IMG/VR virus record: IMGVR_UViG_3300009873_000003
Coordinates: 1 to 64,000 of that record
Length of the DNA: 64,000 bases
Reading direction: 5' to 3' (one strand)
Source of the DNA: a virus
Lineage: Duplodnaviria; Caudoviricetes
The notes beneath the pieces were generated by a model. It ran no database searches and was not told the DNA's origin. It was given only the letters and a program-made list of their open reading frames with translations. Both the position numbers and the translations under genes were made by a program. This document shows, in pieces, positions 11,780-60,403 of this stretch; the stretch's first letter is position 1; each line of letters opens with the position of its first letter.

Positions 11780-11854
11780 TTTTTCACCTTTTGTTGATGA
11801 GATGTTGCACAAACGTTGCGCTAACTTTGGGCAAACTTTGTGCTAATTGTTGCG

Positions 11855-12085
11855 TTAGTCCTGTGTTGGTTGACAATAGCTGCTAAGAATATCGTCAACG
11901 CTAAGGGCATCGAGACTACCGAAAGCATAGTCTAAATTTTGCGCAGTGTATTGCGCAAGTGAATCGTTGGATATGCGATATTCACCATCGCATTCTTCCG
12001 CTTTAACCTTGCCTTGGCGTACCATGCTAAGCATTTTATCATACGATACACCTAACGCTTTTGCTGATTGTCTGACAGTTAACAT
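11855..12085 (-). CDS. excisionase/BldC-like (HTH_17, MerR-like) DNA-binding protein
   Basis: MLTVRQSAKALGVSYDKMLSMVRQGKVKA...GEYRI signature; GGGG RBS. Confidence 0.8.
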   Translation of the reverse strand: MLTVRQSAKALGVSYDKMLSMVRQGKVKAEECDGEYRISNDSLAQYTAQNLDYAFGSLDALSVDDILSSYCQPTQD

Positions 12086-12164
12086 AGTTTCCCCATTAGA
12101 ATTAGTACGGCAATAACCCAAAGAATGTAATGAGCAGTTGATAGATTTGATGGCGTAGTCATTG

Positions 12165-12377
12165 TTAAAAACTCGATTTCCAAAAGCTGAATTGCAAATC
12201 AGAAAGCTCATTATTAATGTTGAAAAGTTGTGCGGCTTGCTTCTGTTGTTCAGTAAGCATGAAACGCACATCACCGCTAACCGCTTGCAATTGTGCTGAC
12301 ATCAGTGCGTTTTGCATCAAGAGATAGGCAATAATACCGGCAACAAGCAACTGTTTGGCGAGATTAATCAATTTCAC
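12165..12377 (-). CDS. small membrane-anchored protein
   Basis: Hydrophobic N-terminus followed by Q-rich coil. Confidence 0.45.
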   Translation of the reverse strand: MKLINLAKQLLVAGIIAYLLMQNALMSAQLQAVSGDVRFMLTEQQKQAAQLFNINNELSDLQFSFWKSSF

Positions 12378-12822
12378 CTTTAACCTACTTTCTTAACAGT
12401 GGCGTAGCAGCGTTAGCTGCTTACATTGTCTAGATTGACATGATAGCTGTTTGGCATCAGCTATACGTTTAGTCTGGCGTTAGCCAAACAGCTATCATGG
12501 CAATCCAAACATTGCAAGTGCTTGGCAATCTTGCGTTAAGCATCGACGATTTGAATCGTTCGTGGGACAAGTCAACCACGCAATACTTAACGCAATTAAG
12601 TTGTTAAGGTACGACACCCAACACACTAGACCAGAAACCGCAATCTCTGTTTTATTGTCTAGTCAAGCTTGTGAACTTCTGTTTCTTTACTTTCGGTTTG
12701 GTGGGATACCTGTAATCCTAACAGGTTAGGTCAATCTTGTTTGAACTTTCGGTGGCGGTGGGTTGATACGTTTGCGTTACCTTTCTGCGGTTTGCCTTGC
12801 GTTTGTTTCTTTCGATAGCACT

Positions 12823-12898
12823 AGTTTACCACGGTTTGGCCCAAACGCATCCCTACGCAATCCCTACGCTATACCTACGTTGGTCTGATGTTAGCCTA
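12823..12898 (-). promoter_or_regulatory. lead promoter cassette P0 (variant)
   Basis: TGG-TAAACT; CCTACG boxes at 12852, 12863, 12874 and partial at 12895; lacks the TTGACG box. Confidence 0.65.
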
Positions 12899-13244
12899 TA
12901 CTCCTTTACTTAGTTGCGCTATGTATATATTTATAACGTCATAAACAGATGTTCTACTAAACTGGTAGGCATCGGCAATAGCTGTTAGACATCGGCGTTC
13001 GCTGTTAGACATCGGCAAGATAATAAAAGTGTAATAATTTTTAGAAAATTTTGGTGTTTGCAGTATTGAAAAATGACAACATCCTTTTTCTGACAGCGTT
13101 CATAGGGGCAGGTAGGTAGGTTGCGTGTTTGGTGATGTTATGAAAAGTCATTGACCCGATTCTAAAATCAATTCTATGTTCTAGAATTTTACCCTAACGT
13201 CATATAAACTATAGTCATCTTTACCAACACAATCGAGGTCTAAC

Positions 13245-13481
13245 ATGTCACGAAACGCTTTGCCACCGTCGCATTATGAATTAAAACTTCACAATAAATA
13301 TAATCAAACCTACGTCATCCTTCCCCAAGAAAGTTGGCGTGGCGTTAGGACAAACGTCGCAATTCATTGCGACAAGCACCAAACTAAACGCTTTGTTTGG
13401 TTGCAGAAAATCTTTAATGGCCGGAATTCAATTTGGCCTTGCCGTCAATGTTTCCTGGATTCATTGCGACCCCCCTACTGA
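13245..13481 (+). CDS. small Zn-binding protein (DUF723-like)
   Basis: V.I.CDKH ... CRQC; GAGG RBS. Confidence 0.5.
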   Translation: MSRNALPPSHYELKLHNKYNQTYVILPQESWRGVRTNVAIHCDKHQTKRFVWLQKIFNGRNSIWPCRQCFLDSLRPPY

Positions 13482-13506
13482 TGACCCCCCTACTGAAAAG
13501 GTTTGG

Positions 13507-13546
13507 CAAAACAGCAAGTTTCAAGCATGATAAACTTGCTGTTTTG
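13507..13546 (+). terminator. hairpin terminator
   Basis: CAAAACAGCAAGTTT/AAACTTGCTGTTTTG. Confidence 0.6.
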
Positions 13547-13888
13547 TGCTTTGCTATTGGATGCTGATGTTGGTTTGGTCGGACTTGCGCCAAGCTTCGT
13601 CACTGCGTGACAGACATTGGCGCAACGAAAGACAACGCTAACATTCATAGTCAGGAAGACTAGAATGTTAGCGTCTGAGAAGGCTAGGCCGAGAACGTTA
13701 GCGTGTTCATGTTCACACGAGGGACGACACTGTGAGAAAGCTTTTAGAACGTTTTTAGAGCGCTTTTCTCGGCTAAAATCGAGAAAGTTCTCGCTAAGCT
13801 GAGAATCTTAGCGAGAAACATCGCTTTCCAACACTTTCCAACAACCCTCGGCGTTCATCGGCGAACATCCGTCAAATTAATGGTATTG

Positions 13889-14152
13889 TCATTCACGTTT
13901 TAGCCCATGTTGTTGATAGAAGTTGTCGAGCATTCGGTCAAATTCGATTCTAGCAAGTTTATTGAGTTCTTGTTTAACGTAGGCTGGGTCAAGTTCAACT
14001 TCTTGCAATAGTTCGTCAAGTAGTTCATGCTTACGACTTAGTTCAGCATTTTGCTTCTTGGTAGCGTTTAATGTATTTGTAAATTGTTGGTACGCTAACA
14101 GCAAGTTCTGAAGCCAGGTTAGATTTATTAATTTGGTTAACGTCGTGCGCAT
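13889..14152 (-). CDS. hypothetical protein (start uncertain)
   Basis: Overlaps the end of the 14043 gene. Confidence 0.35.
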   Translation of the reverse strand: MRTTLTKLINLTWLQNLLLAYQQFTNTLNATKKQNAELSRKHELLDELLQEVELDPAYVKQELNKLARIEFDRMLDNFYQQHGLKRE

Positions 14153-14858
14153 ATCGTTTCTCCATTAGTGCTAGAAAAGTTGCATAGGATTCTGACTTGA
14201 TTGGTGTTGCGCTATTGCCGATGTCAGTGTTTCGGGTTGTTGGTTCAACTGGTTCAAGCGGTTTCGCTTCACTTTTGAAAGTCTTTTTAGTTTCTTCTGG
14301 CATCAAGAGTGACAGTGCTTCATCTGTTTTATAGCGAACGATTTCGACGAGTCTTTCTTTCAGATAGGTGTTGTCGATTTCGATGCTATCTAAGTCAGTT
14401 GAGAGTGCAATCTTTTCTGTGATTCGTTCACTAAAGCCTTCGTTGAAGAGTTTCAACTTACGTTTTTTCTCGCTTAAGTGAAACGTTGACATGGCATACG
14501 CTAGCCCAAATTCCATTAAAGTCGGGAAAATGAGGCCGAAGAACGCTGCTAAGTAGATGTTCAGGCCATGTGACAGATAGGCAAGACATTGCAACACACC
14601 AGACGTCAGAGCGAAAAGTAAGGTCACGGTGAGCATGGTGTTGAACGCTGTCTTGTCTGTTCTATCGACTTTGCTTAGCAACATACTGACAGAGACTAGC
14701 CCAAACCCAATGCCAGAGCCAAGAATAACACTAAAGTAGATGCCATGACCATGTGCTGACAGATAGGTCGTCACGTTAAACACTGACGCAATGGCAAAGC
14801 TAATCATCACGGTTTCAACTAGTCTTTCGTTCGTTAAATGTTTTTTAAGTTCTTTCAT
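14043..14858 (-). CDS. 4-TM membrane protein with coiled coil and C-terminal HTH (Spd/DUF2637-like architecture)
   Basis: Four hydrophobic segments; INKSNLASELAVSVPTIYKYIKR HTH. Confidence 0.65.
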   Translation of the reverse strand: MKELKKHLTNERLVETVMISFAIASVFNVTTYLSAHGHGIYFSVILGSGIGFGLVSVSMLLSKVDRTDKTAFNTMLTVTLLFALTSGVLQCLAYLSHGLNIYLAAFFGLIFPTLMEFGLAYAMSTFHLSEKKRKLKLFNEGFSERITEKIALSTDLDSIEIDNTYLKERLVEIVRYKTDEALSLLMPEETKKTFKSEAKPLEPVEPTTRNTDIGNSATPIKSESYATFLALMEKRYAHDVNQINKSNLASELAVSVPTIYKYIKRYQEAKC

Positions 14859-14915
14859 GAGCGCCTTAATTTTCTTGTTAAATTAAAAAAGTCTGCCAAG
14901 TTGCAGACCTTACAT

Positions 14916-14944
14916 ATTATAACAGTTAACGTTTAAAAAGTCAA
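14916..14944 (-). promoter_or_regulatory. sigma70-type promoter
   Basis: TTGACT-17-TATAAT with TG. Confidence 0.75.
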
Positions 14945-14984
14945 CGTTTCACGCAGTAGCCTTGGTTAATGTTTTGCCTTAACT

Positions 14985-15240
14985 ACTGTTGAATTTTCGC
15001 CTGTTAAATTTTAGCCTTTAGAGTTTAGCCTGTTAAATTTTAGCCTTTAAATTTTAGCCTTTAGAGTTTAGCCTTTAGAGTTTAGCCTTTAGAGTTTAGC
15101 CTTTAAACCATAAACCCCTTTAAAATTTAACCCCTTAAATTTAACCCCTTAAATTTAACTCTTTAAAATTTAACCCTTTAAAATTTAACCCTTTAAAATT
15201 TAACCCTTTAAAATTTAACCTTTTAAAATTTTAGTCTCTA
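14985..15240. repeat. AT-rich 14-15-bp tandem repeat tract in two subfamilies
   Basis: TTTAGCCTTTAGAG-type units, then TTTAACCCTTTAAAA-type units. Confidence 0.9.
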
Positions 15241-15254
15241 GAATTTTTCGCCAT

Positions 15255-15599
15255 TCACAGGCGAAAATTTCTTAACAGTGGTGACAGGATTAAGGTTAAA
15301 ATTATTGTCATGATTATTCTAGCGATGAGTAGTGAGTTAAAAAGTAGCGTTAAACCATAGAGGGCTGGCAGGCGAAGTGTTAAGAACATAATGACGGAGA
15401 GTGCGACCAAGGCATAGCGTTTAAAGCGATTGTGCAGGTTAAATGACGAGTAGTTAAATAGAATTAAGACGATGGCGACTGGCATATAGTTGAGCACAAT
15501 TCCTGCGATGCTATAGGACAGATTTGTGCCAAAATCAAGTAACCCAGCCAGCGTGACGACAAGACAAAGAGTTAAGGTTGCTGCGATGACGTGCTTCAT
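15255..15599 (-). CDS. multi-TM membrane protein
   Basis: About 4 hydrophobic helices from MKHVIAA. Confidence 0.65.
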   Translation of the reverse strand: MKHVIAATLTLCLVVTLAGLLDFGTNLSYSIAGIVLNYMPVAIVLILFNYSSFNLHNRFKRYALVALSVIMFLTLRLPALYGLTLLFNSLLIARIIMTIILTLILSPLLRNFRL

Positions 15600-15692
15600 T
15601 TTCTTCTCTTCTTTCTGATGTTGGAGTCCGAAGTCTTGCAGAAAAGACTTTCTAAAAAACATTATAGCGTTGTTTTCTAGAAAGTCAAATCG

Positions 15693-16427
15693 TTAGTCGA
15701 ACAATTTTGCGGATTTGGAGCGAGGCTTAGCGACTGGTTTGGGAGAAGGTCGTCTGCGTGTTTTTAATGTCACGGTTTGTTTAGCGACAACTTTGGGTGA
15801 AGGGTGAATCTTCTTGCTAATTGTTTTAACAACTTCACGTCGTCTTTTTTCGTGATTAACGTGACTGGTTGGCAATGAAGTTAGCTGACTTTGAAAGATA
15901 AAAATCATCACTCTTTCTGCAAACATGACTGGCTGGTAGCGCACTCCCCACGGCTTCATTGGGTCGTTGTTCTGATAGCTGAGCGTGCTATGACCGCCTC
16001 TGGTTGCTGGTTTGGACATCACGACAACGCCATTGAAGCCATGCGTGATGTGTTGTCTAAGGATTAGGTCGGCTTGAAAGTGTCTTGATTCAGGCACGAG
16101 CACAGCGACTTCGATGTATTCGTGACAATCATGTCCGACTTCATCAACGCCTTTTAGCGCATATTGAAGCATGGTTGGAATACCGTAGCTCCAGAATGCT
16201 GTGCTCAGAATTTGACCGCCAGAGATGCCTGATTGATAGATTCTGAAGGTGATGTTTTTAGGAAACACGAGTTTAAAGCGTTTTGCATGGCGTGATGCTC
16301 TAATTGAGACAACAATCAGATAGTAAAGGACAGCAGGGAATGAGAGAAACATTGCTGCTCCTGTCATTGCCTGCATGAATTGGTCTTTATTACTAAGCTT
16401 GCACTTGCAGTCGTCTTTAGTTGCCAC
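15693..16427 (-). CDS. membrane-anchored protein with basic C-terminal tail
   Basis: N-terminal TM, K/R/P-rich tail; coupled to the ATPase gene. Confidence 0.65.
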   Translation of the reverse strand: MATKDDCKCKLSNKDQFMQAMTGAAMFLSFPAVLYYLIVVSIRASRHAKRFKLVFPKNITFRIYQSGISGGQILSTAFWSYGIPTMLQYALKGVDEVGHDCHEYIEVAVLVPESRHFQADLILRQHITHGFNGVVVMSKPATRGGHSTLSYQNNDPMKPWGVRYQPVMFAERVMIFIFQSQLTSLPTSHVNHEKRRREVVKTISKKIHPSPKVVAKQTVTLKTRRRPSPKPVAKPRSKSAKLFD

Positions 16428-18141
16428 TATCTGTCTCTACGACTTTCTTCACGATGTCATTATAGAACTGGCCCCAACGACCGCCAAACACAGTTTTCGT
16501 GATAGCTCTGAGTGAAACACCGTCGTGATGCAGATTTCTAATGAGCGTCTTATCCCTTTCGGTCAAGTCCTCGTAACAAGCCGGTGCGGTTATCTGCTCT
16601 GTTTCGTTTTCTGTTTCTTCGTCAATCACATTGACAACTGCGCTTTCGACAACTGCTGGCTTTTTGGTCTCGTGTAGACGTTCAAACGGATTAGTGAAAT
16701 TCACTTCAGCGTCACTTTCTGCAATCAGCCGTCTAACCGATGGTTTCAATTTAGTTCTAACATCCAGGAGTGCTTTCGTATGCCACGCCTTAAACTTCGT
16801 GCTCTTGTTTGTAGAACTAGCGAATTCACCAGCGTTTTTAAGTTTAGGCAGATAGTGGAATCCAATCCCTTTCCCTGCGCCTGCTTCCAACTTGAAAGCG
16901 ACCCAATACTTGACCAAACTTTTGATGACAGGTTCCCAGCGTGTTGTCTCTTGGTCGATAAAGATAAGACTCATTCCAACGGCTCTACAATCACGCATCA
17001 TTGTGCTCAACGCCTTGATGATGTAGTCATAGTCTTTTCTATTATTCCCCTTGAGCGTGTCACACAGTGAGCCGAACTCTTCTAAAATCACAATAATTGG
17101 CACCATTTTGTGTGAATCGAGTTCATCATAGAAATCTTGAATGCTCTTGTCAGCAACGATTTGTTTGCGTTGGGCATAGATTTCGCCGAGTTGAAAAATC
17201 TGGTCCCTAAAGACGTTGCTATTTGTCATGTGTACTTCAAAGACGCTGCTAAAGGGTTGCCAGTCCATTAAGCCTTTAGCATCCAGCACAATCACGTGGT
17301 AGCCTGACTTACGTGCATAGTAGGCTGTCAGGAGTCCTGTTGAACTCGTCTTGCCGGTTTTCGTGCTGCCGACAATGCCAACATTCACCACATCTCTGAT
17401 GTTAATTTCACTCAGTTCGCCTGTCTCTTCGTCTTGTCCGACAATCCAACTATTCTTGTTTGACATTCTGATTGCTTCATCAAGGCTAAGCAATTTCACA
17501 GGCTCTTTTTCAACACTTTCAGGTTCAACAATTTCTTCAGGTTTAACGCTCAGCAACTTTTGCGTTCTGTCATAGGCACCAGCAAGAAACTTTCCTGTTG
17601 CAGCATTCGGAATGCCACTTTCACCTGAGACAGCAATCGCTGTGCGAGTGTTTTGAATTTTCTTGTTATAGTCTAATTGTCTATCAGGGCCGAAGGTTCC
17701 ATCAACAGGTGCTTGCAGCAACATGCCGTTCGGTCCTGCTCCAATTGCGCCTGAAGGCGTCTTATTAATATCTACCTTCCACTTCACACCGTTCACTGTC
17801 ATGTCTTGCAGAGCGAAGGAACCGTCAATCTGACGATGCCATGACTCACGTCTTTTGTCGTAGCGCAAGTAAAGGACTAAGCCAGTCGTGCTGACCACAA
17901 TGCCGCAGAAAATCAGTAAGCCGTAGGGAAAGGCGTTGGTGACGGCTTCCCGTCTGATTTGTTCTTCAGTCAACTTGTGTCGCATATCGAGTTGCTCTTT
18001 TTCAAGCAGAACTCGATTGATGTCATTCTTAATCGCTTCACGTTGCGCAATCTGTGGACCGACGTACGACATGTATTGCTGAATATAAAATGCACCTAAG
18101 ATGATTCCTGCGGCTGCGAGATATAAGACTAGCTTCTTCAT
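16417..18141 (-). CDS. FtsK/SpoIIIE (TraB-like) membrane DNA translocase ATPase
   Basis: 2 TMs, Walker A GSTKTGKT, VLDAK, Walker B IVILEEF, RAVGMSLIFIDQ, C-terminal HTH-like helices. Confidence 0.75.
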   Translation of the reverse strand: MKKLVLYLAAAGIILGAFYIQQYMSYVGPQIAQREAIKNDINRVLLEKEQLDMRHKLTEEQIRREAVTNAFPYGLLIFCGIVVSTTGLVLYLRYDKRRESWHRQIDGSFALQDMTVNGVKWKVDINKTPSGAIGAGPNGMLLQAPVDGTFGPDRQLDYNKKIQNTRTAIAVSGESGIPNAATGKFLAGAYDRTQKLLSVKPEEIVEPESVEKEPVKLLSLDEAIRMSNKNSWIVGQDEETGELSEINIRDVVNVGIVGSTKTGKTSSTGLLTAYYARKSGYHVIVLDAKGLMDWQPFSSVFEVHMTNSNVFRDQIFQLGEIYAQRKQIVADKSIQDFYDELDSHKMVPIIVILEEFGSLCDTLKGNNRKDYDYIIKALSTMMRDCRAVGMSLIFIDQETTRWEPVIKSLVKYWVAFKLEAGAGKGIGFHYLPKLKNAGEFASSTNKSTKFKAWHTKALLDVRTKLKPSVRRLIAESDAEVNFTNPFERLHETKKPAVVESAVVNVIDEETENETEQITAPACYEDLTERDKTLIRNLHHDGVSLRAITKTVFGGRWGQFYNDIVKKVVETDSGN

Positions 18142-18213
18142 GGTAAACCTACATTGAGTTGACGTGAGTCAAGGGCCGATGATATATTAATCGCTCTTGC
18201 GACCCGAAATCCT

Positions 18214-18504
18214 TTAGAAATTAAGGTTCAGCGCTGGATAGACTGAATAGATGATGACGCCAAGCAGAGCGAATTTGACCACTGGGTGTGAGTGCACAAG
18301 ATTAACAATGCCAAGTCCGACAATGGCAATGGTTAGCAGGTCTGGTGGCTGCATGGCGTCTAGACCAAGATTCAGCTTGCCGTTCTGATAGAAGATTAGC
18401 CAGACCATTGCAATCGCCAACCCAATCACAATGAGATTAGGTTGAGCGAAGCGTCTTAGCACTTTCGTTGCTTTAGTTGAGTGTTTCTTTGTTCGTCTTT
18501 TCAT
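18214..18504 (-). CDS. 3-TM membrane protein, probably leaderless
   Basis: Hydrophobic segments; ATG 8 nt after TTGACA-17-TATACT. Confidence 0.6.
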   Translation of the reverse strand: MKRRTKKHSTKATKVLRRFAQPNLIVIGLAIAMVWLIFYQNGKLNLGLDAMQPPDLLTIAIVGLGIVNLVHSHPVVKFALLGVIIYSVYPALNLNF

Positions 18505-18557
18505 TGACAGGCAGTATAACACATCGTAAACTACCTGTCAATTTTTTTAGAGAGACT

Positions 18558-20387
18558 CTAATTCCAGGGGATGATGGCATCGAGTTTTGTGTAGATTTCT
18601 GTCAGCTTATAGCCATCTGCTTGTGTGTGGGTTTCGAGATAGTAGAGGAAGGTTTCAAATTCTTTCTGCTTTGTCGTGATGATTTGCTTAAGATAATCGT
18701 CAGTTAGCAAGTTTAGAATATCGTCAGTGGTCAGTTTAGTGGTTGGAGACTTTGTTGTCCAGACGTCACGGATGATGCCACGGAGCAGTGTTTGGCGCTC
18801 TCTGGCGACTTTAGAGGTAGGACGCTTGTAGGCTTTCTTGTTGCTTTGACTTGGTTGTGAGTCATCGTCAGTTTCTTCCTCTGCTTCTGGTTGGAAAGTT
18901 ATCGGCTGCTCTAACACCCACAGCAGGGCGGCACGGCACTGTTTTGCTGTGTTGAAGATGTTGTCTGACGTCGTGTTCATGGCAATTCTGTCAACTTCAA
19001 TCAATTTTTCTTTCACACGAGTGATGAGCGTTGGGTTCAGTTCGAGTTCGATTTCAAATGGATTCTTGATGCCAACGTCAAGCATTTTAGCAATCATTTC
19101 GTTATTTGAGAAGAACAAAGTGAACACAGGGAGACCATTTTCTAGTCTGCCGTCATCGAGTTCCATTGCCACGAATTGAGACTGATTAATGAAGCCGTGG
19201 GCCACAGCGTTTTGACGAGCGCTTCTAACGGTGAGGGCTTGCGTTCTGGTTAGGATTTCGTCAGTTCTAGCGATGTTGATTCTTGTTTTCGCTTCTGATT
19301 CGTTGATTTCACCTGACGTTTCGCCGATTTGCATGACGAGATTAGAAGGCAGGAATTTCAGGTTCAATTCAGCTTCAATCTTGTTTGTGAACCAACTGAC
19401 CAGTTTGTAACGAGACTTCAGGTCAGAAATGAGGGTTGCGGTTTTCGTTGTGCCTGCGTTCGAGGTTGCCACAATGTCATCTTCATCAATGCCTGCTGCG
19501 ATGGCTAGTAGTTTGACTGTGACAGCAAGAAATTCTTGATAGGAGAAGCCAGCAGGAAGGCGTTTCAAGTCAAGGACACCGATTTTCGCTTGCGGGTCTC
19601 GCAGTCCTAGGAACACTCTAGCACCATTTGACTTTAGACCAGTGTTGGTCGAGTCAATCTTTGCATCTTTGAATGCTTGTTTGATAGCCTGCGATGTGAC
19701 ACTCGTTCCCCAAATCACTTGGTCTGAATCAACCTTCCCTAAGCCTTCTAGTCCATACTGAATTGATGACATCATTAACTGAGCGACGTTGAAGGCTCTA
19801 GAGACAAAACTTAAGCCAACAAAGCTTTTCTCGCTGATGGCGGTTGGAATTTGTGTTAGTCGAATGACTCTCGACCAGTGGATGCCAACATTGCCGGAAC
19901 CATTCACGCCGACATAGCGATAGGGAATTTCGTCATTATCGATTAGTTCGATGCACTGTGCTGGAATGTGTCGCAAGCCTGTCGGAACCTCACCAGCAGC
20001 GAAAGGACGTGAGACGCTATCATTACCTTCGATTAGCAAGAAGCCACCTTTGTCAAAGGTGACAACGTCGTTTAGAAAGCGTTCGGCCTGCGCATTCCAA
20101 GAGTTTTTCAAAATCGCATCATAGCTCTCTGCTAATTGCACGGCAGAGCTAATGTATTGATTTTTAGGAATCACTTTTAGCGGTAGTGTGAACAACTTCA
20201 TCACCATCGTTTGAATGATGCTTGAAAGCATGTCATTTTCAATCGACGCAATTCTGAGTCTCTGTTCCCTGACTTCAGACCACCACGGCGGTAAGAGGGA
20301 AGAGTTTGACGCCGAATACATTAGAAAGGAATCGACACCAGGGCCAAGGCGCAGTCCGTTGAGCACGTCTTTTTTAATAATTGTCAT
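18558..20387 (-). CDS. portal protein (probable)
   Basis: Directly follows the terminase; size and GLSFVSRA-type motif. Confidence 0.65.
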   Translation of the reverse strand: MTIIKKDVLNGLRLGPGVDSFLMYSASNSSLLPPWWSEVREQRLRIASIENDMLSSIIQTMVMKLFTLPLKVIPKNQYISSAVQLAESYDAILKNSWNAQAERFLNDVVTFDKGGFLLIEGNDSVSRPFAAGEVPTGLRHIPAQCIELIDNDEIPYRYVGVNGSGNVGIHWSRVIRLTQIPTAISEKSFVGLSFVSRAFNVAQLMMSSIQYGLEGLGKVDSDQVIWGTSVTSQAIKQAFKDAKIDSTNTGLKSNGARVFLGLRDPQAKIGVLDLKRLPAGFSYQEFLAVTVKLLAIAAGIDEDDIVATSNAGTTKTATLISDLKSRYKLVSWFTNKIEAELNLKFLPSNLVMQIGETSGEINESEAKTRINIARTDEILTRTQALTVRSARQNAVAHGFINQSQFVAMELDDGRLENGLPVFTLFFSNNEMIAKMLDVGIKNPFEIELELNPTLITRVKEKLIEVDRIAMNTTSDNIFNTAKQCRAALLWVLEQPITFQPEAEEETDDDSQPSQSNKKAYKRPTSKVARERQTLLRGIIRDVWTTKSPTTKLTTDDILNLLTDDYLKQIITTKQKEFETFLYYLETHTQADGYKLTEIYTKLDAIIPWN

Positions 20388-22069
20388 TAATCGTTCTCCG
20401 TTGATGTTGTTATGCCTGACGAGTTAGCTGTGTTGACAGCATAGGCTAGCATGAGGGCATCGGCTAGGTCAGGACTACGATTGATACGTTTCTTTGTGTC
20501 ATCCTTACTCTCTATCTGTCGTCTGGCATAGCGGTCATAGCGATAGAGCGGCGCAATCAGTTGTTTTGCTAATTCATTTCTAGTATGAGCGTCTATTCTG
20601 GCAAGGCTGATGTCGTGGCTATGAAAAAGTTGATGCGTCTCAAACCAAAGCTCAGTTCTAAGATTCGCATATTTTTCCTGATTATACGCCCTTTCCGCCA
20701 CGTTAATGTCATGTGCGCTATAGCCAGCATCGTGCAGAGTGTCATACACGCCTGCTCCAATCCCAACTGCATCAACTGCAATGTCAATGGCTTTGTGCGG
20801 CACTTCATAGATGTCACTATACTTGACCGCTAGTTGCACTACTCTTGCTGCCACTTCAACTGTTGACAGTCCGTTAACCTCGAATAATTCAAGAATCCGA
20901 TTCCCATGTCGCACGCAGAAGCTGGAAAAATCAGCACCAAATCTCGCCACATCAACACCGATGGTTAGCAAGTCTTCTGGTTTCTCTGGCACGATTGCTG
21001 TGACAGCAAGGTCGATGTCGTATTCTGAGAAAATGTTGTTCATGTTCGTATCAGGCCACCGACCAAGCAAACGAGCAGCAGCAATCGGACCTGGCCGAAA
21101 GTATTGCAACTCATCTGTCAGTAGACTCGACGGTAGGATGATGTCACGTCCTAGTTTGTAATCTTGTTCTGTAATTTGGTCGGACCATTGCAACAAAAGT
21201 TGCTCGAAACGTGCGAGATTGATTGCACCTGGATAGGGTAGGTCGGTGGTTGCTGATTTCCCTTCTGCCATTCGTTCCACGCCAACCCAAATGTTTGGGT
21301 GGTCGTAGGCTGACATGGTGATTGTTTTCCACCCTGCTCTTTTTTCTACACCTGCGACGTAGGAACTTGGGTCTGTCGGGTTATAGATGGCAAGAACTTT
21401 GACGACATCGCCAATCATGAGCGATTCAAGAGCTTCAAACATTTCGGGTTTAATGCCGACAGCTTCGTCGAGTAGGATGACGACATTCGGCCCATGTCTA
21501 CCTTGAATGCTGGTCGGGTCTGAGGTAACGATGCCTTCAAAATAGTGATTCTCTCCAGAAGCAAGTCTTGGCATTTTTGGCCCATCCCAATAACTTTCTA
21601 GGATGCCTGGTGCCATGTTACGAAATTGTCGAGCGTAGGCAAACATGACATTTTGCACAAGTTTTTGTGTTGGTGCTGACCCGATGCCGATGAGTGGATA
21701 GTAGGTGTCGAAAAAGTAGTTAATTAGGATGCCAAGCAGATAGCTTTTACCTGTGCTATGAGCACTGCGCACGCAAACGTAGTTGTAGTCTTGCAAGGCG
21801 TTTACAATTTCAAGTTGCTTCGCCCAAAGCGTTGTGTTAAAGAACGTTTGAGCGTATAGTTGAATGTTATTCGTATATGCGCTAAACGCTTGCGCTCGTA
21901 GTTCTTGTGCGTCTAATTGCTGTTCCAAGCGCTTTTGTGTTAATGGCATCGAACGCCTGTCACTTAGCGTTTTCAAGTCTTTTGCAAGCGCTGTGAAAGG
22001 TTTTCTGGCTTCATTCAGTGGGTTAGTAAGACGACCACGTTTACTGGCCTTCAATTCGTATCTACTCAA
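20387..22069 (-). CDS. terL: terminase large subunit
   Basis: Walker A SAHSTGKS, Walker B ILLDEA, nuclease GVDVARFGAD and SPDLADAL. Confidence 0.93.
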   Translation of the reverse strand: MSRYELKASKRGRLTNPLNEARKPFTALAKDLKTLSDRRSMPLTQKRLEQQLDAQELRAQAFSAYTNNIQLYAQTFFNTTLWAKQLEIVNALQDYNYVCVRSAHSTGKSYLLGILINYFFDTYYPLIGIGSAPTQKLVQNVMFAYARQFRNMAPGILESYWDGPKMPRLASGENHYFEGIVTSDPTSIQGRHGPNVVILLDEAVGIKPEMFEALESLMIGDVVKVLAIYNPTDPSSYVAGVEKRAGWKTITMSAYDHPNIWVGVERMAEGKSATTDLPYPGAINLARFEQLLLQWSDQITEQDYKLGRDIILPSSLLTDELQYFRPGPIAAARLLGRWPDTNMNNIFSEYDIDLAVTAIVPEKPEDLLTIGVDVARFGADFSSFCVRHGNRILELFEVNGLSTVEVAARVVQLAVKYSDIYEVPHKAIDIAVDAVGIGAGVYDTLHDAGYSAHDINVAERAYNQEKYANLRTELWFETHQLFHSHDISLARIDAHTRNELAKQLIAPLYRYDRYARRQIESKDDTKKRINRSPDLADALMLAYAVNTANSSGITTSTEND

Positions 22070-22742
22070 CTTTGTATCCCTCCTTTTGCGCTTGCAATAG
22101 CGATATGTGCTCTCTTAGATTTAGCGAACTTAAATCTTCGGCGTGAAGCTTTAGTAGACTATCAACGGCTAAGGCTCTTGCTTCGGCGTCAGCCGATAAT
22201 TCTAAGAATGTGGAGAGAGCGCTGATAAATTGTGGAATGCTGCGAGGGTCGATGTCATCCGGTTCGATTGAATCGATTCTATCTCTGAGCTTTTCAATTA
22301 GTGTTAGCGCTGAGTGTGTCGTTGATTTCAGCACTTTTGCCTGATTGTCTCGATAGAGCGAAATTGCCTCTAAGTGTTCAAGTTCAGAGCGTCGTTTATC
22401 TAACCATTCTTTATATTTTAGATAGAGTAGACGTCGCTTCGTCCAGTGAAAAGTGAAACTGTAGTGTTGCGCATTGCTTGTTTGTGGTAAGAATTTCACG
22501 TCCCATTTGTCAATAGGCAGCGCAACGAATTTTTTAAACGCCTCGTATGCTTCGTCAGATTCGCCTTCTAGCTGCATCCAGATTGCGTTCTCTTCAACCC
22601 ACTTCGGTGTGATTTGGTCGGCGTCAAGCATTTGTTGAAAGTGGGCGTCATATTCCAAATCAAGTAAACCATCTTCAATGTTTAGCTTTTCAATCACATC
22701 TAATTTTAATTCTGCTGGGTGCTTCATTTTGCCTCTTGTCAA
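22062..22742 (-). CDS. terminase small subunit (probable)
   Basis: Upstream of terL; W.QLEGES..AYEAF motif; helical. Confidence 0.6.
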   Translation of the reverse strand: MTRGKMKHPAELKLDVIEKLNIEDGLLDLEYDAHFQQMLDADQITPKWVEENAIWMQLEGESDEAYEAFKKFVALPIDKWDVKFLPQTSNAQHYSFTFHWTKRRLLYLKYKEWLDKRRSELEHLEAISLYRDNQAKVLKSTTHSALTLIEKLRDRIDSIEPDDIDPRSIPQFISALSTFLELSADAEARALAVDSLLKLHAEDLSSLNLREHISLLQAQKEGYKVE

Positions 22743-26587: not shown

Positions 26588-28033
26588 ATGGGGTACGCAT
26601 TAGAAACTCTACAGAAATTTAACGAACAAGTCAAAGGCATCTTCACGACAGGCGCTGTGACTGTCCGCCCCGAAGAATTTGAAGTCTTGCGCAAGCACAA
26701 CGGTATCCCTGGTACGGCTGGTGACGCAGAACTGCTCTATGTTGAAGGTGGTCTTTTCTCTGACTGTATGCTCGAAAAACCAGTCATGAACGTCACCATT
26801 AATCCACAACGTTCGCTTGGTAATATGATTCCTGTCGTTCGGCGCAACACGCAGGTTAGCAAGTATGCCTTCCTGACTGACATCGCTGAACCCTCTGGCG
26901 CTCTGCCAGAATTCCCGTGTGACGACCCGCAACAGGTTGGCGACCTCTCTGCCTGCTTCCTTGAAACTAGAAAGGGGCGTGCGTCATTCTCGTCCAAGAC
27001 GCTTGAAATGGACCGCATCATTCAGCGCTATCACGAGGGCTTGACCACGGACCTTTACTTGGTTGGCAATGTGCGTGGTGTGAGTGCTGCCTTACAAAGT
27101 GACATGGAAGCGAATCTTTCGCTCATGGCCGAAGCTGCCGTGATGCGCCAGTTTCAGTTGGTTGCCAGAAAGCTGCAACAGAAGCTTTTGCGCCAGTTCT
27201 GGACAGGCGACCCAACCAACGCTGCGCTTAACACTGCTGGCGGTGGCGAACGGCAATTCTGGGGGTTGGAGCACTGGGTTGCGACTGACTATGACACTAA
27301 GACTTGGGTGAACGGGACAAATTGTGAGAGACTCAACAGCGACATTAAGGACTTTGAAGATACTTGCGTTGGCGCTGCAAACGCCACGACAGGTGTTGGC
27401 CTCTATGAATACATGCAGACGCTTGAAGAGACATTGACCACAAGAGCCAGCTTCTACGGTTATACGAGCGTCGAATGGGTTTGGGTAATGCGTCCAGAAA
27501 TGTGGGCTGCAATCACAAAGTACTTGCCGTGCGAAATGTTGAGCGGTAATTGTTCGACTCCGTTGGATGGCAATAGTGCGTTGACTGGTAATGTTTCGAT
27601 TGACGTTAGCGGCATGGGGATTGCGACTCTGCGTCAGCAACTGCAATCAAGCCAGCGCATTGACGTGAATGGTAGAACATATCGTGTCATCATTGACGAT
27701 GCCATGCCGGTCACAACGGTCGCTGGCCCTCCTGTTGCGCACAGTAGTGATATCTACTTCATGCCGCTGAGTGTCGAAGGCCAACCCGTGCTGTTCTGGG
27801 ATGTGGCCGACTATCGAACGCTTGACTTAGCGCTTCGCCCAGTCCCTGGTGGTCTTGGCGGGCTGCGTGGTTGGCACGATGGTGGCATGTTCTTGAGCGT
27901 TGTGACTAGCTTGAACTACTGTTTCAGCATCACTACTAAGGTCGAAGCTGGCATTGTTCAACTTGCGCCACATTTGGCAGGACGTATCGAGAACGTGCGG
28001 GCTTGCAGAATTCAGGCTGCGCCAGTTTGGTAA
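26588..28033 (+). CDS. major capsid protein (probable)
   Basis: Position, strong RBS, FWTGDP...QFWGL motif, followed by a terminator. Confidence 0.75.
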   Translation: MGYALETLQKFNEQVKGIFTTGAVTVRPEEFEVLRKHNGIPGTAGDAELLYVEGGLFSDCMLEKPVMNVTINPQRSLGNMIPVVRRNTQVSKYAFLTDIAEPSGALPEFPCDDPQQVGDLSACFLETRKGRASFSSKTLEMDRIIQRYHEGLTTDLYLVGNVRGVSAALQSDMEANLSLMAEAAVMRQFQLVARKLQQKLLRQFWTGDPTNAALNTAGGGERQFWGLEHWVATDYDTKTWVNGTNCERLNSDIKDFEDTCVGAANATTGVGLYEYMQTLEETLTTRASFYGYTSVEWVWVMRPEMWAAITKYLPCEMLSGNCSTPLDGNSALTGNVSIDVSGMGIATLRQQLQSSQRIDVNGRTYRVIIDDAMPVTTVAGPPVAHSSDIYFMPLSVEGQPVLFWDVADYRTLDLALRPVPGGLGGLRGWHDGGMFLSVVTSLNYCFSITTKVEAGIVQLAPHLAGRIENVRACRIQAAPVW

Positions 28034-58305: not shown

Positions 58306-58968
58306 ATGTACGTAGAATTCACAAATTTTCTAAATGAGCGTGACTTGAACCTAGAACTGCTGTTTAGCTACGGCTCGCAGGTCTATAATCTAGATAATGC
58401 GTCGAGTGACTATGACTTGATGGCTGTCGTGTCGCAGCAACCAGACACCTACCTTGGACTGCACGATGCGAATCGGTCTTGGGGTCACTTCACGCACGAC
58501 AACGTCACTGTGCAATTTCTTGATTTGAAACGCTTCTATCAGCTTGCCGAAAGTAGCAATTTCACGCTCTATGTTGGACTGCGGAATTTGACCTTCACTG
58601 CACCCTTGCAGCTACCGAACCCTCGCACGTTTAGCTTGCGCAAGCTTGCACATCATTGTCTTGGTCTTGTCGATAACAAAAGTCAACGTCAGTATATGAA
58701 GGCATACAGCGCATTGTTCGTCATGTTTCTAGTGCAGAACGGGCATCATCCAGCAAGTCTTGACTATCGCTATCTACTAGACAATGTTCGCTCTGTTCCT
58801 GACAATGTGAAACGGCTGCTCGAACTTAAAAAGACAGGCGAGGCAAAACTCTCTGACGTTGCCGTAAACGCACCGTACACGCACGATGAAGTTAACTTTC
58901 TATCTGACGAAAAACACTCTTATAATGATTTCTGGCTTGATTGGCTGAAGGAGCGCTATGTCTTCTAG
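58306..58968 (+). CDS. Pol-beta superfamily nucleotidyltransferase
   Basis: YGSQVY.L....SDYD motif. Confidence 0.8.
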   Translation: MYVEFTNFLNERDLNLELLFSYGSQVYNLDNASSDYDLMAVVSQQPDTYLGLHDANRSWGHFTHDNVTVQFLDLKRFYQLAESSNFTLYVGLRNLTFTAPLQLPNPRTFSLRKLAHHCLGLVDNKSQRQYMKAYSALFVMFLVQNGHHPASLDYRYLLDNVRSVPDNVKRLLELKKTGEAKLSDVAVNAPYTHDEVNFLSDEKHSYNDFWLDWLKERYVF

Positions 58969-60403
58969 TAACGTTTGGTCGAACTACGACTACCTTGAAC
59001 AAAACATCGAAGTGCGTATGATTCTTGACTCGCTTCGTGAATCGAACGGCACAAGAGTTTCAACAATGCTCTGGCGTGTGCCAAGATTTCTGTTACCGCA
59101 ACTGAACACTTACAGAACATTTTCAAGAAATGTTTCAAGCTGTTTGACTGGCGACAACGAACTCTACTTCGACAAACCAGTTGCTATTGCTAAAGGTAAA
59201 CGCTTTCTCAACAAAGTGTCTTTAGACACGCTCTATCGAAAATGGACCTACGGCAATTCGATAGGCAGAACTCAGAAACATGTCGTCCGTGCACTGTGTT
59301 TGCGTTGTTACGATTTCGACAAAAATGAATTTAAACACACCCATATTCGTGACATTCGTTATGAAGGCTTGAAAGAGGTCTACAAAGTAACATTCTCTAA
59401 CAAATTCACGCTAACCCTAACAAGCGACCATCGTCTACTAACCACAGAAGGTTGGAAGACGCTGCAAGACTACGGTTTACATGTTAAAGCTGACGGTCAG
59501 TGCGAATGGAACGAAGGACCGAAAATTGCTGCCAACGAAAAGCTAACGAAACCAAGTGGCCCTCATCCACGCTGGGTGAGAATTAGAAATATAGAATATG
59601 TTGGTGTTGAAAAAGTCTACGATGTTGAAGTTGAGGACGAAAACGAATCGTTTGTCTGCAATGGCATCGTTGTTCACAACAGTCGTGCTAAACGTTTTTC
59701 TAAAACTGTTTCAGAAGTCCTCGACAATCCATATGTGCCGTACATCTGGCAAGCTGACCATGCTGGAATGCAGACGGAAGAAAGATTAGAAGCTTGGAAA
59801 ACACCGATTGCGAACTTTCTGTGGAATGCTTCAATTCAAACTCAAACCTTTTGGGCTGGCTGTCTCTCAAGATTAGGCGTCTCGAAACAATACACAAATC
59901 GTCTAATTGAACCTTACATGTATGTTGACTATCTCGTGACAGCGAACGATTTTGACAATTTCTTGACGCAACGTGACAGCTTTCACGCTCAATTAGAAAT
60001 CCAAGTGCTTGCCCGTCGCCTACGTCTAGCACTAGAATGCAGCGAACCAACAGTGCTAAAAACGAATGAATGGCACCTGCCGTTTGTGACTAATTCTGAA
60101 AAAGAGAACATGTTTGATGCAATCAGACTAAGTGTTGCACGCTGCGCTCGAACCAGTTATCTTGCACCTAACATTGAAACAGACAAACAAGCTGACTTCA
60201 AGCTGTTCGCACGTTTAGCTAAAGACTATCACCTATCACCTTTTGAACATCAAGTCGTGATGTCAGGAACTTGGGGCGGGAATTTGCAAGGCGTGACACA
60301 ACTTCGCAAAGTTCTCGAAACTCACCTTACCTTCACTGATGGCGTGTTCAATTTGAAAGAGTTTGAAAATTTGTTAATGAATCGTCTTTCTCTGTTCGAC
60401 TAA
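58958..60403 (+). CDS. thyX: flavin-dependent thymidylate synthase with intein
   Basis: PRFLL.QLNTYRTFSRNVSS|SRA, NRLIEPY, AQLEI, ARCARTSY, HLSPFEH. Confidence 0.85.
   Translation: MSSSNVWSNYDYLEQNIEVRMILDSLRESNGTRVSTMLWRVPRFLLPQLNTYRTFSRNVSSCLTGDNELYFDKPVAIAKGKRFLNKVSLDTLYRKWTYGNSIGRTQKHVVRALCLRCYDFDKNEFKHTHIRDIRYEGLKEVYKVTFSNKFTLTLTSDHRLLTTEGWKTLQDYGLHVKADGQCEWNEGPKIAANEKLTKPSGPHPRWVRIRNIEYVGVEKVYDVEVEDENESFVCNGIVVHNSRAKRFSKTVSEVLDNPYVPYIWQADHAGMQTEERLEAWKTPIANFLWNASIQTQTFWAGCLSRLGVSKQYTNRLIEPYMYVDYLVTANDFDNFLTQRDSFHAQLEIQVLARRLRLALECSEPTVLKTNEWHLPFVTNSEKENMFDAIRLSVARCARTSYLAPNIETDKQADFKLFARLAKDYHLSPFEHQVVMSGTWGGNLQGVTQLRKVLETHLTFTDGVFNLKEFENLLMNRLSLFD
59141..59680 (+). mobile_element. mini-intein (180 aa)
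   Basis: Starts CLTGD, block B TSDH, ends VYDVEV...GIVVHN followed by Ser. Confidence 0.9.

Follow-up and report, generated by a model that had tools for sequence, protein, structure and literature searches.

A minus-strand gene cluster of the tailed-phage record IMGVR_UViG_3300009873_000003 encodes a membrane-anchored FtsK-type ATPase and a partner protein which together constitute a new family. The pair belongs to a core module of virulent-looking large phages and is shared with small elements of Caldilineales resembling the integrative and conjugative elements of actinomycetes (AICEs). The window analysed here comprises the first 64 kb of the 114,335-bp IMG/VR record, which is linear, is estimated to be 92% complete and in which no terminal repeats were seen. 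We tentatively read the region as a module for translocation of double-stranded DNA by an FtsK-type motor in the style of TraB, independent of a type IV secretion system (T4SS); this may well be its function, at somewhat under even chances in our estimate. Its use by the phage for spread from cell to cell is plausible.

The ATPase is an intact FtsK-clade motor anchored by two membrane helices. Hydropathy and the AlphaFold2 model place hydrophobic helices at residues 4-22 and about 66-94, with a long extracytoplasmic helix between them. The second transmembrane (TM) helix is followed by a strongly conserved, poorly modelled juxtamembrane region, the P-loop motor domain modelled with confidence (predicted local distance difference test, pLDDT, about 90), a disordered linker and a C-terminal three-helix domain, putatively a helix-turn-helix (HTH). 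Walker A reads GSTKTGKT and Walker B reads ILEEFG; G258, G263, K264, E355, R386 and Q397 (Walker A, Walker B, an arginine and a 'DQ' motif) are invariant in 23 relatives, and the 'DQ' motif aligns with QRP of TcpA, the FtsK-like ATPase of the Clostridium perfringens plasmid pCW3. The C-terminal bundle (residues 528-572, pLDDT 76-90) has no visible wing, and no Pfam HTH or FtsK_gamma model matched it. The same domain is present on an HNH endonuclease of the related phage L006 (46% identity over 48 aa), so it fits a portable DNA-binding module. Hydropathy, motifs and structure model agree with the initial annotation, which had described an FtsK-family ATPase with N-terminal TM helices and a C-terminal HTH-like domain.

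Taken as a single sequence, the ATPase matched phrog_1358 weakly (FtsK/SpoIIIE-like, 2e-10). A profile built from the 23 relatives (A1) matched TcpA at 4e-14, FtsK at 8e-6, HerA at 1e-4 and EccC (PDB 5fv0) at 0.023 when compared with the PDB, and Foldseek with the AlphaFold2 model gave TcpA (7e-12; TM-score 0.59, normalised by target length), EccC/EssC (8e-11 to 7e-10), FtsK (1e-8) and HerA (1e-7). In hhalign, with TcpA and pIJ101 Tra taken from plasmid records, the family aligned to TcpA with 98.2% probability (E 5e-14) over 356 columns reaching from the second TM helix to the end of the motor, and to Tra with 93% (E 2.6e-7) over a 185-column motor core. By these comparisons, the closest characterised relative is TcpA of pCW3, and pIJ101 Tra is more distant. 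The initial annotation had named, as the outcome that would speak against it, a grouping with packaging or HerA-type defence ATPases. Profile, Foldseek and hhalign all put the protein into the FtsK clade, and as the A1 comparison with the PDB and Foldseek place TcpA and FtsK ahead of HerA, a HerA-type or packaging ATPase is ruled out. The likeness to TraB, which had also been claimed, stands in part: the order of TM helices, motor and putative HTH is that of TraB, but the plasmid_TraB model is not reached and TcpA is closer than Tra.

The window ATPase itself did not match PF01580 (FtsK_SpoIIIE) and scored 19.2 bits with DUF87 (PF01935) against a cut-off of 23.2, whereas 15 of the 23 relatives matched PF01580 at E <= 0.01 (best 4e-8). 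The tie to PF01580/PF01935, as far as profile matches tell, is at the superfamily level only. NCBIfam and PADLOC gave generic sub-threshold matches (EssC, CedD, TraD, plasmid_TraB, HerA, mad8) and nothing else. An exhaustive profile search returned 214 cluster representatives at E <= 1e-30 and 534 at E <= 1e-10; tblastn of the ATPase against phage and plasmid collections gave no match. Judged by these searches, the ATPase belongs to an FtsK-clade family not described before.

The start of the partner gene overlaps the ATPase stop by 11 nt, and the two genes are translationally coupled. The partner is conserved directly downstream of the ATPase both in phages and in the Caldilineales elements. 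Its structure model had no specific PDB match, only generic ferredoxin-like ones (CutA1, S6, PII), and no usable match in the Atlas.

Related phages fall into two groups. In L005 and L006 (127-130-kb contigs) the gene order is that of the window: TerS, TerL, portal, small TM protein, ATPase, partner, small TM protein and a protein with four TM helices and an HTH (4-TM/HTH). In the clade B phages L003, L004 and L008 (108 kb) the packaging genes and the module are arranged divergently, and the module includes an HTH_17 protein together with a second FtsK_SpoIIIE protein of the canonical type. One clade (support 100/99) unites the phage ATPases of the two groups, and its two subclades parallel the relatedness of TerL and portal. 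The module can therefore be considered an old, vertically inherited core of this group of 108-130-kb phages, and the ATPase-partner pair, by sequence relatedness, is ancestral in them. The ATPase family was also found in L007, a phage fragment with ribonucleotide reductase (RNR) and MazG, and in the temperate siphophage L013.

Two details of these genomes may be added. The second FtsK_SpoIIIE-domain protein of L003 (13347-14762) has 471 aa and matches PF01580 at 1e-20. In the L006 stretches 11804-13162 and 15389-16009, an HTH_17 gene and a CapR-like gene are inserted between the ATPase and partner genes, a duplicated fragment of the partner N-terminus has been left behind, and close by is the HNH endonuclease with the C-terminal domain of the ATPase.

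Outside phages, the ATPase family was found in 9 of 151 genomes of the order Caldilineales, which are filamentous Chloroflexota. In a sample of 401 genomes from across Chloroflexota, only the centre genome G001 (a Caldilinea) has the family and the other 400 lack it. The Caldilineales copies sit in small elements (about 10 kb) adjoining tRNA genes. In L011, perfect 62-bp repeats of tRNA-Lys with a distance of 10,142 bp flank the element, which contains an integrase, the ATPase, a primase-helicase, a few small open reading frames (ORFs) and a second integrase. L012 and L010/L031 share the order tRNA - int - xis - ATPase - partner - primase, L002 has int - int - xis - ATPase - partner - AAA_25 helicase - primase, and L029 has tRNA-Gly - int - ATPase. 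ATPase and partner are the only recurring genes besides those for integration and replication, and by gene content they are the sole candidate transfer function of these elements. A search for VirB4 families in five carrier genomes, which are metagenome-assembled genomes (MAGs) and may be incomplete, gave nothing convincing; one marginal AAA_10 match (29.2 bits against a cut-off of 27.5) covers model positions 17-60, the P-loop region, only. The Caldilineales elements are small and integrated at tRNA genes, and they carry int, xis, one gene for replication and one FtsK-like gene but no T4SS. In this they fit the AICE type, and the AICEs of actinomycetes share their layout (PMC2440964, PMC3218068).

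Three 21-bp direct repeats with a CGATACAC core lie at 7535-7608 of L011, inside the 3' part of the ATPase gene. Several Streptomyces clt sites occupy this position relative to tra.

No VirB4-type AAA_10 (PF12846), relaxase (PF03432) or Rep_trans (PF02486) was found in the 114-kb phage genome at its estimated completeness, so a T4SS-based route is unlikely. The same genome yielded no tyrosine integrase, ParA, ParB or second FtsK. From its gene content the phage looks virulent, and a phage-plasmid lifestyle, tried as a candidate, is unsupported since ParA, ParB and integrase are all missing.

The intergenic direct-repeat tract reported by the initial annotation proved to be strongly non-random. 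It contains 27 YTAAA cores in a single orientation, spaced by 7-8 bp within 246 bp, while shuffles of the same bases gave a mean of 2.2 and a maximum of 7 cores. At 15006-15231, Tandem Repeats Finder (TRF) counted a 14-15-bp unit 15.4 times (score 196); read along the gene strand, the array consists of some 15 units, each GGTTAAATTTTAAAG or GGCTAAACTCTAAAG. The array is the densest YTAAA site of the 114-kb genome, with no other 250-bp window coming near. Its longer units are found nowhere else in the genome, and a dispersed guide motif of the kind of the FtsK-orienting polar sequences (KOPS) is ruled out by this confinement. L005 and L006 have TTTTAAAA repeats at the array's position and conserve the TTAAA core together with the layout of promoter and hairpin; clade B phage L003 has no array at the corresponding place. 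Known clt sites are arrays of 5-9-bp direct repeats beside or inside tra (PMC3583192).

A DNA-transfer function is favoured for the family because the characterised proteins nearest to it act in conjugation, the Caldilineales elements resemble AICEs and there are precedents in the literature. Under this reading, a hexamer of the ATPase would sit at the cytoplasmic membrane or septum, and an HTH domain, either the ATPase's own or that of the 4-TM protein, would dock phage DNA via the repeat array. Double-stranded phage DNA would then be pumped through the membrane by the motor, in the way Streptomyces TraB acts with clt, and the small membrane proteins would build the passage or keep it stable. 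The likeliest use in the phage would be delivery of replicating genomes to adjoining cells of a filament or aggregate before lysis. In its full form the proposal is that a virulent phage outside Actinobacteria pumps replicating double-stranded DNA through a YTAAA-docked motor into neighbouring filament cells as a second, capsid-free infection route, and that the same motor family drives TraB-style, T4SS-independent conjugation of small elements in filamentous Chloroflexota. We speculate along these lines while considering so complete a picture unlikely, with perhaps one chance in four.

Several observations weigh against a transfer function. The ATPase reaches no curated family threshold, and in particular the window protein does not match NCBIfam NF041214 (plasmid_TraB), which 3 of the 23 relatives match at E 8e-4 or worse, far below the cut-off. 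EssC-type relatives export proteins, not DNA. The family of the 271-aa 4-TM/HTH protein (A3) gave an hhalign probability of 0.3% with pIJ101 SpdB, that is, no detectable homology. Immediately downstream of the array comes the promoter of the 271-aa gene, and clade B phages such as L003 lack the array; abutting a promoter and being clade-specific, it could equally be an operator as a clt. With no integrase and no ParAB, the phage would be a virulent one, which gains less obviously than a temperate one from conjugation-like transfer. Attempts at host assignment yielded no host for the phage, filamentous or other. Finally, the analogous 'DNA translocation operon' of phage 0305phi8-36 is dispensable in the laboratory (PMC3357382).

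The best of the other explanations is that the module serves genome entry. Host RNA polymerase would transcribe it on the first-entering DNA, the ATPase would pull in the remaining ~100 kb and the array would be a loading or pause site. The consensus-like promoters at 18541, 15688 and 14944 are in line with this, as are the core status of the module in apparently virulent phages, the weak NCBIfam matches of the ATPase to the archaeal DNA-import ATPases CedD and CedB, and the bordering ~1.5-kb ORF-poor, repeat-rich stretch, a possible genome terminus or origin. However, entry leaves unexplained why ATPase and partner occur in integrated int-rep elements of 10 kb that have no virion genes. The linear, incomplete record shows no terminal repeats which would place the physical ends of the genome, and we know of no phage with an FtsK-type entry motor. 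We regard genome entry as rather unlikely.

Slightly less probable still is a role in tethering or segregation, in which the 4-TM/HTH protein would anchor the genome to the membrane via the array, and the motor would resolve or position DNA, e.g., by clearing septa or feeding packaging sites. Plasmid centromere-like sites are tandem direct repeats, and a unique tandem array stands here directly beside the gene of a membrane-anchored HTH protein, with TTAAA core, promoter and hairpin kept in L005 and L006; synteny of the module with TerS, TerL and portal in clade A also agrees with this role. In clade B, however, the module is separate from the packaging genes and transcribed divergently from them, and its neighbours in L007 and L013 are nucleotide-metabolism or early genes. 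The phage has neither ParA nor ParB, and it is trans-envelope machines (TcpA, EssC) that typically have two TM helices as an anchor and an extracytoplasmic helix.

We see only a slim chance that the module acts in competition or host takeover, i.e., in superinfection exclusion by expelling or blocking incoming DNA, in interference with FtsK-dependent division or chromosome handling of the host, or in anti-defence. PHROGs classes the FtsK/SpoIIIE-like family as 'moron, auxiliary metabolic gene and host takeover', and the family occurs on several kinds of mobile elements. The weak PADLOC matches (mad8, best 1e-12, and HerA) might be counted in its favour as well, but they reflect generic P-loop similarity, and partner genes of any defence system are missing. 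Vertical inheritance and conserved synteny in a deep phage group are unusual for exclusion or defence morons, and the combination of a C-terminal, putatively sequence-specific HTH with an array in cis on the phage genome speaks for handling of self DNA.

A TcpA-type coupling protein handing DNA to a host-encoded T4SS, which would make the phage mobilisable, or an EssC-like protein exporter is very improbable: TcpA is the best solved match, with EccC/EssC next, and a passage of PMC5357655 places TcpA-type coupling proteins on streptococcal integrative mobilisable elements (IMEs), but the phage has no relaxase, Rep_trans or VirB4, the five Caldilineales carriers (possibly incomplete MAGs) show no convincing VirB4, and the putative DNA-binding HTH at the C-terminus argues against protein export.

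If TraB-style translocation does move phage DNA between cells, spread in filamentous or aggregated bacteria would not depend solely on virions and receptors, and for biofilms and the filaments of activated sludge this would alter how burst size, host range and resistance are seen. The Caldilineales elements would extend single-protein conjugation of double-stranded DNA, characterised so far in actinomycetes, to another multicellular phylum, and at about 10 kb they are small, tractable test objects. Should the module serve genome entry or membrane tethering instead, phages would be putting FtsK-type motors to a new use in their life cycle.

Features of the module and of the adjoining packaging genes (positions in the window).
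Feature	Position	Strand	Properties and evidence
Small terminase subunit, TerS	22062-22742	-	phrog_6299, 4e-7
Large terminase subunit, TerL	20387-22069	-	phrog_2, 6e-32; Terminase_6C
Putative portal, 609 aa	18558-20387	-	assigned from position and size only
Sigma70-like promoter	18541-18513	-	TTGACA-17-TATACT, extended TG
Small 2-TM membrane protein, 102-aa ORF	18214-18522	-	hydropathy; first gene of the unit driven by promoter 18541-18513
Membrane-anchored FtsK/TcpA-clade P-loop ATPase, 574 aa	16417-18141	-	PHROGs, profile, Foldseek, hhalign, AlphaFold2 model
Partner protein, 244 aa	15693-16427	-	N-terminal TM, cytoplasmic ferredoxin-like alpha/beta domain, Lys/Arg-rich tail ending SAKLFD
Sigma70-like promoter	15688-15661	-	overlaps annotated start of the 135-aa ORF
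Small 4-TM membrane protein, 135-aa ORF	15255-15662	-	hydropathy; own promoter 15688-15661
Direct-repeat array, 27 co-oriented YTAAA cores	14995-15240	-	candidate protein-loading or operator site; TRF, shuffles
Sigma70-like promoter of the 271-aa gene	14944-14916	-	TTGACT-17-TATAAT; array ends just before
Hairpin and T-run, terminator-like	14911-14888	-	directly after promoter 14944-14916
4-TM/HTH protein, 271 aa	14043-14858	-	3-4 TM, helical linker, C-terminal HTH
Helical ORF, 87 aa, doubtful	13889-14152	-	overlaps the 271-aa gene by 110 nt

The three further membrane proteins (with two, one and four TM helices) and the multi-TM/HTH protein that the initial annotation had listed are all present on the minus strand. 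Three strong sigma70-like promoters divide the module into three transcription units. As the promoters at 18541 and 15688 overlap annotated starts, later starts are expected for two small ORFs: the 102-aa ORF probably begins at Met7 (about 18504) and the 135-aa ORF probably at Met22 (15599), giving 114 aa. The L005 homologue of the latter 4-TM protein aligns from residue 22. The 2-TM protein has homologues at the matching place in L005 and L006 (51-54% identity). The predicted transcription start of the 14944 promoter lies inside the 5' arm of the hairpin, so that transcripts from upstream could terminate there while those from this promoter read on.

The 271-aa protein has homologues in L003-L006 with 30-45% identity. 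It was predicted to combine four TM helices, a coiled coil and an HTH; three to four TM helices and a helical linker are indeed present, while the HTH is weak (HTH_29/HTH_11, E about 0.005) and falls below the Pfam cut-offs. A language-model search with this protein gave leads scoring below 0.9 to viral, Chloroflexota and actinomycete clusters, some with SpdB_N or DUF2637. The suggestion that the membrane proteins are Spd-like was not borne out by homology to pIJ101 SpdB, and the likeness of the 271-aa protein is architectural only (four TM helices and putative DNA binding). Given its overlap with the 271-aa gene and the absence of a homologue among the loci compared, the reality of the 87-aa ORF is uncertain.

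TerS, TerL and the gene for the 609-aa protein are co-oriented with the module and located directly upstream of it, in one minus-strand block running from 22742 down to 13889. The initial annotation had placed the module beside terminase and portal. The terminase part is supported by PHROGs for both subunits, but the 609-aa 'portal' had no match in Pfam or PHROGs, nor in the PDB, with which it was compared both singly and as a profile of five sequences. Nine out of ten large candidate virion genes at 25204-46805 (up to 1622 aa) had no PHROG match, and the remaining one matched weakly a family of unknown function; the virion module or lineage must therefore be a very divergent one. No sequence in the PDB matched the putative capsid protein (26588-28033). 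As for the host, the MscS-like and SH3-domain proteins of the phage have metagenomic relatives only and gave no lead, and the portal has no relatives in the 151 Caldilineales genomes.

Just downstream of the module, the ORF-poor stretch at 12380-13889 contains unrelated direct repeats of 20 bp x 2.8 (12962-13018), 15 bp x 2 (13468-13496) and 13 bp x 3 (13662-13814), and a perfect 15-bp inverted repeat at 13507-13546. This stretch could serve as replication origin, genome terminus or regulatory hub. Gene-poor gaps likewise follow the 4-TM/HTH genes in L005 and L006. Rfam gave no credible match over 12000-19000. Elsewhere in the window, a ThyX-like gene (58958-60403) is split by an intein splicing domain (Intein_splicing 9e-9; Thy1 1.6e-5).

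TcpA acts with the T4SS of pCW3. This plasmid carries two adjacent FtsK/SpoIIIE-domain genes, presumably tcpA and tcpB, and in this it is similar to the clade B phages with their second FtsK-like paralogue. TcpA (PDB 6o1w-6o1z) is the best profile and structural match of the phage ATPase, and in both proteins an FtsK-like ATPase domain comes after two N-terminal TM helices. However, the phage ATPase has an extra conserved juxtamembrane region and the putative C-terminal HTH, and the relaxase TcpM, TcpD, a TcpE-family protein and further conjugal-transfer proteins annotated beside the pCW3 genes have no detectable counterpart in the phage.

The TraB/Tra (KilA)-clt-Spd systems of Streptomyces plasmids and AICEs (pSVH1, pIJ101, pSAM2) resemble the module in their membrane-anchored FtsK-like motor with a C-terminal HTH (PMC4447253, PMC3583192, PMC2440964), a putative one in the phage protein. 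Further similarities are the lack of a T4SS and relaxase, the adjoining small coupled membrane proteins, including a 4-TM type resembling SpdB2 in architecture, a short direct-repeat array nearby and relatives in tRNA-integrated int-xis-rep-tra elements. The homology of the phage ATPase is, however, limited to the motor domain, and there is no SpdB homology. The phage repeats are AT-rich YTAAA units with 7-8-bp spacing which abut a promoter, and they are carried by a tailed phage of 114 kb, apparently virulent and from outside Actinobacteria.

Conjugation-type genes in phages are already known. For the Streptomyces plasmid-phage pZL12, a passage in PMC3583192 citing Zhong 2010 reports a tra gene required for transfer; SpdB2 homologues on actinophages have been proposed to help phage DNA spread (PMC4447253); Bacillus phages 0305phi8-36 and SPO1 carry a 'DNA translocation operon' (PMC3357382), and an FtsK-like gene without an assigned role is present in Cluster J mycobacteriophages (PMC3706429). 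They differ from the phage described here in that pZL12 is an actinomycete plasmid-prophage with a bona fide tra gene, the 0305phi8-36 operon combines a relaxase with an AAA_10 ATPase without TM helices, and the Cluster J protein has no membrane anchor. What they have in common with it is that virion-forming phages carry a DNA-translocase gene of the conjugation or FtsK type, in a role that is accessory or unassigned.

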